Source of the DNA: Octopus vulgaris
Taxonomy: Eukaryota
Assembly (NCBI GenBank): GCA_951406725.2
Contig: OX597834.1
Span: forward strand, 24,676,001-24,740,000
Direction: 5' to 3'
DNA length: 64,000 bases
The notes below the pieces were generated by a model, which saw only the letters and a program-made list of their open reading frames with translations, was not told the DNA's origin and did not search any database. The position numbers were made by a program, and so were the translations under genes. Shown piece after piece: positions 29,492-43,385 of the stretch. The first letter of the stretch is position 1. Every line of letters starts with the position of its first letter.

Positions 29492-30087
29492 GTGGCGAGT
29501 TGGCAGAAACGTTAGCACGCTGGGCGAAGTGCTCAGCAGTATTTCGTCTGCCGCTACGTTCTGAGTTCAAATTCCGCCGAGGTCGACTTTGCCTTTCATC
29601 CTTTCGGGGTCGATTAAATAAGTACCAGTTACGCACTGAGGTCGATATAATCGGCTTAATCCGTTTGTCTGTCCTTGTTTGTCCTCTCTGTGTTTAGCCC
29701 CTTGTGGGTAATAAAGAAATAAGTATTTCGTCTGCCATTACGTTCTGAGTTCGAATTCCGCCGAATCGACTTTGCCTTTCATCCTTTCGGGGTCAATAAA
29801 TAAAGTAGCATTTTCGCACTGGGGTCGATATAATCGACTTAATCCGTTTGTCTGTCCTTGTTTGTCCCTTCTGTGTTTAGCCCCTTGTGGGCAGTAAAGA
29901 AACAAGTATTTCGTCTGTCGCTACGTTCTGAGTTCAAACTCCGCCGAGGTCGACTTTGCTATTCATCCTTTTGGGGTTGATAAATAAAGTACCAGTTTCG
30001 CACTGGGGTCGATGTAATCGACTTAATCCATTTGTCTGTCTTTGTTTATCCCCTCTATGTTTATCCCTTTGTGGGTAGTAAAGAAAT
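29492..30087 (+). mobile_element. Head-to-tail trimer of SINE family A
   Basis: Units 2 and 3 both restart at GTATTTCGTCTG (29723 and 29906). Confidence 0.92.
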
Positions 30088-41237: not shown

Positions 41238-41333
41238 GGAATTTACAAAAAAAAACCCCCAAAAGACGAAGACAGGTGTGTAAACAACAAACAGGTGTAT
41301 TAATTTGTTTAACGCTCGGGAAAGTGAGAATGT

Positions 41334-41369
41334 CTTTTACGTTTCGAGCCTACGCTCTTCAACAGAAAA
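41334..41369 (-). ncRNA. Minimal hammerhead-like motif, A6U variant (element 41236-41432)
   Basis: Minus strand TTTT-CTGTTGA-A-GAGC(gtag)GCTC-GAAA-CGTA-AAAG. Confidence 0.5.
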
Positions 41370-42738: not shown

Positions 42739-42803
<65 letters not shown>

Positions 42804-42884
42804 TATGTTCTCGGTTTTTGTCTTTGTTGGTTATCTTACAAAAAATCTAATGCTCTTAACTTAGACATTGGGGTGGGGATGGCA

Positions 42885-42951
42885 ACTCTCTGAAGTGTAA
42901 CTGCCCGAAACAGTAAGGACTTCCGATAAACTTGACTGACGAAAGAAGGCA
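42885..42951 (+). ncRNA. Non-circularly permuted hammerhead-like motif, decayed
   Basis: ACTC-TC-TGAAGT..TGCC-C-GAAA-CAGT..ACTTGA-CTGACGA-aagaa-GGCA; one mismatch each in stems I and III. Confidence 0.5.
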
Positions 42952-43059
42952 ACCAATGATCCGTCTTTTCTTCCTGTCCTAATTGTTGTTTCTCCTGTCC
43001 GCCTTCGTATCGTCTATCTGTCCGAATGTTTTATTGTCCTCTATTGCGTTTTCGTTCCA

Positions 43060-43095
<36 letters not shown>

Positions 43096-43301: not shown

Positions 43302-43385
43302 CCTCCTGAAGAGATTGGTGCACTACTGCCCATTATTTATCCTGCCGGACATTTTGGAGTGCACCCGTCGAAACGTATGTAGAAG
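43302..43385 (+). ncRNA. Type I hammerhead ribozyme-like motif with long stem II
   Basis: CTGAAGA 43306-43312; GGTGCACT/AGTGCACC stem; GAAA 43370-43373; GTA 43379-43381; stem I CCTC/GAAG imperfect. Confidence 0.65.

Follow-up and report, generated by a model that had tools for sequence, protein, structure and literature searches.

A window of 64,000 nucleotides of the Octopus vulgaris genome (the whole stretch analysed here, positions 24,676,001 to 24,740,000 of contig OX597834.1) holds at 42800-43058, on the plus strand, what is very probably a decayed copy of a high-copy repeat that specifies a predicted rewired hammerhead ribozyme. Judged from sequence comparison, the ribozyme would consist of four helices and would cut itself directly after the UC at 42889-42890. 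We are highly confident that the rearranged hammerhead represents a genuine conserved fold; we infer the details of the fold, the catalysis, the cut site and the mobilising enzyme. With less confidence, we consider it reasonably probable that we are dealing with a seventh natural hammerhead arrangement, in which the catalytic strand has been freed from stem II at A9/G10.1, and that this arrangement is the missing ribozyme of the Naiads of ctenophores, cnidarians, acanthocephalans, crustaceans and cephalopods, as well as of thousands of non-autonomous octopus elements. Its cut would then set the 5' ends of the insertions and provide genomic proof that hammerhead-cleaved RNA templates Penelope-like retrotransposition.

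In the proposed arrangement the ribozyme would start at G10.1 and end at A9. The 5' half would hold, in this order, the 5' strands of stem II, of a fourth helix (P0) and of stem III, the UH site and the 5' strand of stem I, and the 3' half would hold the 3' strand of stem II, GAAA, the 3' strands of stem III, P0 and stem I, and CUGANGA. The hammerhead core is complete, with CUGANGA, GAAA and the UH triplet beside stems I-III; all three helices show compensatory changes and stem II is closed by a G10.1-C11.1 pair, which recurs in two further families (D and N, see below).

The copy in the window belongs to an old family of repeats (family A). It is truncated at the 5' end, non-coding, and 79-82% identical to other copies over its span, and its best matches in the genome show 81-90% identity (2,279 candidates). 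At the 5' junction lies a (TA)n microsatellite (42742-42802), which is likely the insertion target (most copies end in (TA)n), and at the 3' junction an (AC)n stretch (43062-43092). All parts of the predicted ribozyme lie on the plus strand. The region 42870-42884 represents, according to the alignment and the pairing counts for the upstream strand of stem II, the eroded 5' strands of stem II (G10.1 first) and P0; it is 5 nt shorter than in the majority of family A, although nested folding still joins its G-run to 42901-42906. It is followed by the 5' strand of stem III with U16.1-C17 (42885-42890), the predicted scissile bond 3' of 42890, and the 5' strand of stem I (42891-42896). The segment 42902-42914 comprises the 3' strand of stem II (C11.1 at 42906), the GAAA core (42907-42910) and the 3' strand of stem III. 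The linker that comes next (42915-42929) includes the 3' strand of P0 (42922-42927), which carries two changes in this copy, and could form an extra helix with sequence near 42962. Finally, 42930-42942 provides the 3' strand of stem I and the CUGACGA core (42936-42942), the predicted 3' end of the ribozyme.

The initial annotation of this stretch had described a rearranged hammerhead with GAAA ahead of CUGANGA, a reading that our analysis supports as a predicted fold. ACTC-TC-TGAAGT lies at 42885-42896, GAAA at 42907-42910 and CTGACGA at 42936-42942, and the three strings that it reported as shared with a second element in the window, together with all the stem strands it named, are found in both elements where it had placed them. 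It also predicted that the consensus of the subfamily would read ACTG-TC-TCAAGT. Among the 30 best family-A copies this is indeed the majority at every column (exact in 11 of the 30), and both mismatches of the window copy vanish. One of these, a G-to-C change at 42888 that costs stem III a pair, is private to the window copy (G in 24/30 copies); the other, a C-to-G change at 42892 that costs stem I a pair, is shared with 2/30. Considering the broken pairs in both stems and the damaged strands of stem II and P0, the window copy is probably dead as a ribozyme, as had been suspected.

The second element in the window, on the minus strand at 61266-61490, is a copy of a young family (family B) with its core at 61343-61387 and its cut predicted between 61402 and 61401. 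Its identity to other copies is 93-96% (2,732 candidates genome-wide), and it has lost one base from the upstream strand of stem II. A core pattern that covers families A and B finds exactly these two sites in the 64-kb window and none in 100 shuffles, whereas a search of the genome (2.8 Gb) yielded 3,379 matches against 0 for the reversed control. A pattern in which stem III begins with a purine gave only 2 junk matches. A long imperfect inverted repeat (61612-61831) is situated just upstream of the family-B copy.

The repeat unit measures about 710-870 nt (range 711-872), and units are arranged head-to-tail or have their 5' part inverted. In loci L017, L019 and L023 we found partial tandem units of 711-727 nt, and in four loci periods of 769-872 nt, with the longest ATG frame encoding 54-114 amino acids. 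On the 3' side the units of the families end at a common fixed point in (TA)n; at the 5' end they are truncated, and they lack a long frame. Head-to-tail non-coding units, 5' truncation, inverted 5' parts and microsatellite targets are the features of a non-autonomous Penelope-like element of the retrozyme type, which the repeat likely is.

Subfamilies C1, C2 and B' and a stem-I variant were gathered by pattern searches, and 66 copies were aligned; the selection required that the cut-site region be intact and that a P0-like motif and a GG downstream of the core be present. In these copies 95.6% of the cells in the helices are paired, versus 19-45% in slid controls; as the copies are related, such counts overstate the number of independent events, and the covariation amounts to a handful of them. 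Stems I and III covary, as the initial annotation had proposed from two copies, with two and three compensatory pairs respectively. For instance, in 90 copies that have C for T in the 3' strand of stem I, the matching G is present in 71 and absent in 19.

For stem II the outcome was different. The initial annotation had paired the strand ahead of GAAA with sequence following CUGANGA, at the cost of a 5-nt insert after A9; in the window copy these are the five bases and the GGC at 42943-42951 (plus strand). As drawn, this stem needs different registers in the two elements, and when a single common register is imposed a C-C mismatch appears in 22/66 copies and the fifth pair is open in 44/66. 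The five bases before GAAA vary by subfamily, and they find an in-register partner in five bases located upstream of the cut site, with three compensatory pairs. This upstream strand leaves 91.8% of the cells paired and G10.1-C11.1 intact in 58/66 copies, compared with 78.5% for the downstream strand, in which one pair covaries (A-U in 42 copies, G-C in 17). When the count is anchored on 63 of the 66 rows (three were dropped for indels), the upstream strand pairs in 290/315 cells and the downstream strand in 247/315; in subfamily C2 the two tie at 17/20 cells each. The predicted duplex energy favours the upstream partner in 53/66 copies and the downstream partner in 12. The alignment therefore suggests that the 5' strand of stem II probably lies upstream of the cut site and not after CUGANGA, and that the stem II and the insert drawn earlier are probably wrong. 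The upstream strand had been overlooked because both copies in the window have damaged it.

Two further features that had been proposed for the family did not survive the comparison of the 30 best family-A copies. Of the GGA..TCC motif in the linker, the TCC is found in 2/30 copies and replaced by TCT in 20/30, which led us to reject the hairpin reading, and the GGCA said to follow the insert occurs in 2/30, GGCC being present in 21/30. Nevertheless, a GGC five bases past CUGANGA is conserved in families A-C, though only in this lineage, and would be able to compete for stem II; it may be a switch or a relic.

In the fourth helix, P0, the strand that begins directly 3' of the upstream half of stem II and the linker ahead of stem I are paired in 426/504 cells. 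In family B proper an A-C mismatch is present in 29/32 copies; in subfamily B' the pair is G-C, and 71/72 cells are paired owing to two restoring changes. A helix between AGGA in the linker and GTCC downstream is paired in 227/275 cells, with no compensatory pair.

The same architecture was recovered outside families A-C. A descriptor of the full arrangement matched the loci at 27 distinct places, against 0 matches when 4.0 Mb of the loci in shuffled form were scanned; it misses the full form of both window copies because the upstream strand is damaged in each. The descriptor alone led to family D, which has unrelated stems and 1,567 matches (control 0). The upstream strand is retained in 17 distinct copies of this family; of these, 16 form 5-6 pairs in stem II and all 17 have a complete stem III, and P0 shows a swap between G-C and U-A. 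Family N, the Naiad-type motif derived from octopus Naiads in the literature, has a third set of stems and matches the genome 456 times (control 0). In 2 of 25 loci (L140 and L156) the N-type motif is preceded, at a distance of about 1.3-1.5 kb and in the same orientation, by Naiad reverse transcriptase sequence. Outside the motif, families A, B and C are related to one another, and no homology links either D or N to them. Weak, G-U-rich downstream partners for stem II are also present in families D and N, and in family D the G-run that corresponds to the downstream GGC can form a hairpin of its own. In L184 near 7270 (minus strand) and in the 3' flanks of L058 and L063 we noticed additional families in which GAAA precedes CUGANGA and the stems are different; they probably represent further lineages of this ribozyme.

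The search for an autonomous partner of families A-D yielded none, and no Naiad reverse transcriptase lies upstream of these families in the loci compared. A young Neptune-like autonomous family with open reading frames of about 1,200 amino acids was rejected as mobilising partner, given its standard-order motif and its lack of homology to the A and B units. The reverse transcriptase fragments that adjoin the units in L127 and L079 were also discarded: (TA)n separates them from the units and they are probably independent insertions.

Several observations were made in passing. A very young autonomous Penelope-like family, with many near-identical copies, open frames of 1,000-1,214 amino acids and (TA)n at the end, is found at L176:2440-6081 and in L161-L179. 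In the window, a minimal standard-order motif with UUGAAGA at about 41325-41362 (minus strand) resembles the one at the 3' end of the young Neptune-like element in L176, and a standard-order hammerhead-like motif (CUGAAGA, a long stem II and CGAAAC-GU) occupies 43306-43385 (plus strand), some 250 nt downstream of the family-A element. The window also contains tandem arrays of 107-nt units (4168-4651) and of 184-nt units (29538-30086), the latter of which we take to be SINE-like from its appearance.

In other animals, the arrangement appears to be present in Naiads. The 3' ends of some of these elements seem to hold other structures: that of Naiad-1_Movir (Morbakka) has what by eye we take to be a twister-like string, and those of Naiad-1_Chem and Naiad-2_Chem (Clytia) presumably share a structured motif. 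Naiads without the rewired hammerhead may thus carry other ribozymes. In the portions of the study by Craig et al. (2021, PMC8557442) that deal with this point, Naiads are reported to lack canonical hammerheads, with cores and half cores being flagged. We parsed by eye the contexts of CUGANGA in the consensus sequences of its supplement, a procedure that misses matches broken at line ends, and found that the rewired order fits 11 of the 54 published Naiad consensi, one of them partly, from five phyla. The fitting set consists of Beroe, Clytia family 3, three near-identical Acropora families from three species, Morbakka family 2, two Octopus species or families, Euprymna (a partial fit, stem II being mismatched), and Pomphorhynchus and Eulimnadia, the last two placed by file order only. 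It includes families flagged as HHR_core or HHR_half_core, and the architecture resides in their 3' UTRs. The stems are unrelated, yet the order, the G10.1-C11.1 pair and all core bases are the same. In Beroe, Clytia, Acropora, Morbakka and Pomphorhynchus the upstream partner of stem II forms 4-6 perfect pairs by eye, and in the same five no downstream partner after CUGANGA was seen in these contexts; stem I of Beroe has only 2 bp. Nematode Naiads have the standard order by eye, and several arthropod Naiads in the supplement could not be parsed.

The closest known relative is the type-SGC hammerhead (HRIMA-1; Eckert et al. 2023, PMC10085705), which, according to the portions of that paper describing it, was validated in vitro, requires four helices and is known only from metatranscriptomes, though RefSeq was searched. 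The octopus fold shares with it the order of site, GAAA and CUGANGA, the short link between stems I and II, the full hammerhead core, and a fourth helix, here P0, that connects stems I and II at their distal ends. The two differ in that the 5' strand of stem II and the interaction strand lie upstream of the cut in the octopus fold, which breaks 'Block C': in type-SGC the stem II strand follows CUGANGA by at most 1-2 nt, whereas the nearest downstream partner in the repeat is located 5 nt past CUGANGA and is weaker than the upstream one. Formally, the arrangement would be a type-SGC circle opened at A9/G10.1 and closed between P0 (the interaction helix) and stem III. The new covalent link is plausible, since stem III and the interaction helix are described as directly joinable in type-SGC (PMC10085705). 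Because the helices of type-SGC are shared but its Block C is not, we file the motif as a hammerhead variant. It does not belong to the classical types I, II or III, as GAAA precedes CUGANGA and the helices cross, and no hammerhead match appeared among the best 150 of 272 Rfam rows for the window or in 5 loci. In the same portions of PMC10085705 the classification of permutations allows six orders, the link between A9 and G10.1 being assumed uninterruptible. The plus-strand hammerhead of CChMVd, with its extra A10 (PMC3705267), also deviates from the consensus at this link; it has a one-base insertion in a standard topology, whereas the octopus fold has a backbone break. In the literature searched, as far as the texts consulted go, this insertion was the only precedent for an altered link and none was found for a break. 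Nor was a report of this strand arrangement found in the texts consulted.

As to the elements themselves, the (TA)n targets and the partial tandem and inverted copies resemble those described for Naiads in the portions of PMC8557442 considered, but families A-D consist of non-coding units in which no homology to the octopus Naiad was detected. With animal non-LTR retrozymes (Cervera and de la Pena 2020, PMC7229834; bioRxiv 10.64898/2026.07.22.740005) they share the non-coding tandem layout, a single hammerhead per unit and the tie to Penelope-like elements. Retrozymes as described there measure about 170-400 nt and have type I hammerheads, whereas the octopus units measure 710-870 nt, have the rewired ribozyme and are seen as genomic copies alone.

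Three other explanations deserve consideration. The repeat could be a type-SGC hammerhead that builds stem II through the GGC after CUGANGA and tolerates a 5-nt insert after A9, with the upstream strand acting as a competitor or a switch. The conserved GG five bases after the core in families A-C, the covarying pair and the fraction of paired cells of the downstream strand, its weak counterparts in families D and N, and the tolerance of one-base insertions at A9/G10.1 seen in the relevant part of PMC3705267 all speak for it. Nonetheless we regard it as unlikely, in view of the mismatches, the open fifth pair and the weaker duplex of the downstream strand, the failure to find such a partner by eye in the five Naiad lineages listed above, and the absence of inserts of more than 1-2 nt from the known alignments in the portions of PMC10085705 considered. 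The remotest of the three, and very improbable, is that hammerhead-like words arose by chance in a repeat and that the covariation reflects shared descent. Nested folding energies were not better than those of shuffles (7 of 7 cases, z between -0.9 and +1.5), and no hammerhead was among the best 150 of 272 Rfam rows for the window, nor in 5 loci. However, nested folding is uninformative here because it cannot score crossing helices, and the same holds for the Rfam tools. Moreover, the zero matches of the full descriptor in 4.0 Mb of shuffles, and an architecture common to distant phyla and to three octopus lineages in which no homology was detected beyond the motif, are hard to reconcile with chance.

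The last alternative accepts the fold but takes it for a structural signal, such as a binding site or pause site of the reverse transcriptase, that cleaves poorly, or only with protein or as a dimer; we rate it as slightly less likely still than a downstream stem II. It gains from the hammerhead of an Anolis Penelope-like element, which needs protein in order to cleave, can be dispensed with for insertion in vitro and leaves no RNA ends where it cuts (PMC11167929). The insertion junctions are pertinent in this respect. For family B we collected copies that have (TA)n no more than 30 nt upstream of stem II; 331 of them are on the minus strand, and in 66 of these 331 the three bases before the cut are kept. 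After correction for mutation, each upstream position has about 3.4 junctions, whereas each position from -2 to +6 has 28. Six of the 17 family-B places listed begin exactly at the cut, 8 begin at +2 to +6 (TA microhomology can inflate the junctions at +3 to +6) and 3 upstream. In the old family A no pile-up was seen, 2/7 junctions being at or just after the cut, which favours a structural signal. What argues against such a signal is that the step in family B coincides with the scissile bond and not with the 3' edge of a helix, and that all the catalytic bases and a UH site are retained in different phyla and with unrelated stems. The pile-up of 5' ends at the predicted cut in family B suggests cleavage in vivo. 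Under the preferred reading of a self-cutting rewired hammerhead, tandem or read-through transcripts would be cut to give a template with its 5' end at stem I, which a Penelope-like reverse transcriptase/endonuclease would copy in trans into (TA)n sites.

If the rewired arrangement is correct, an explicit assumption of the classification of hammerhead permutations, in which only six orders are allowed, would be broken, and non-circular permutations would move from anonymous metatranscriptomes into animal genomes. More rewired hammerheads may be hidden, because standard descriptors and Rfam models miss this arrangement. With both core strands on the 3' product and the 5' product held by three helices, the arrangement may also suit designs for trans-cleavage. 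For the elements themselves, the pile-up of insertion ends in family B bears on whether Penelope-like elements use their ribozyme in vivo, and the rewired order would explain the apparent absence of hammerheads in Naiads.
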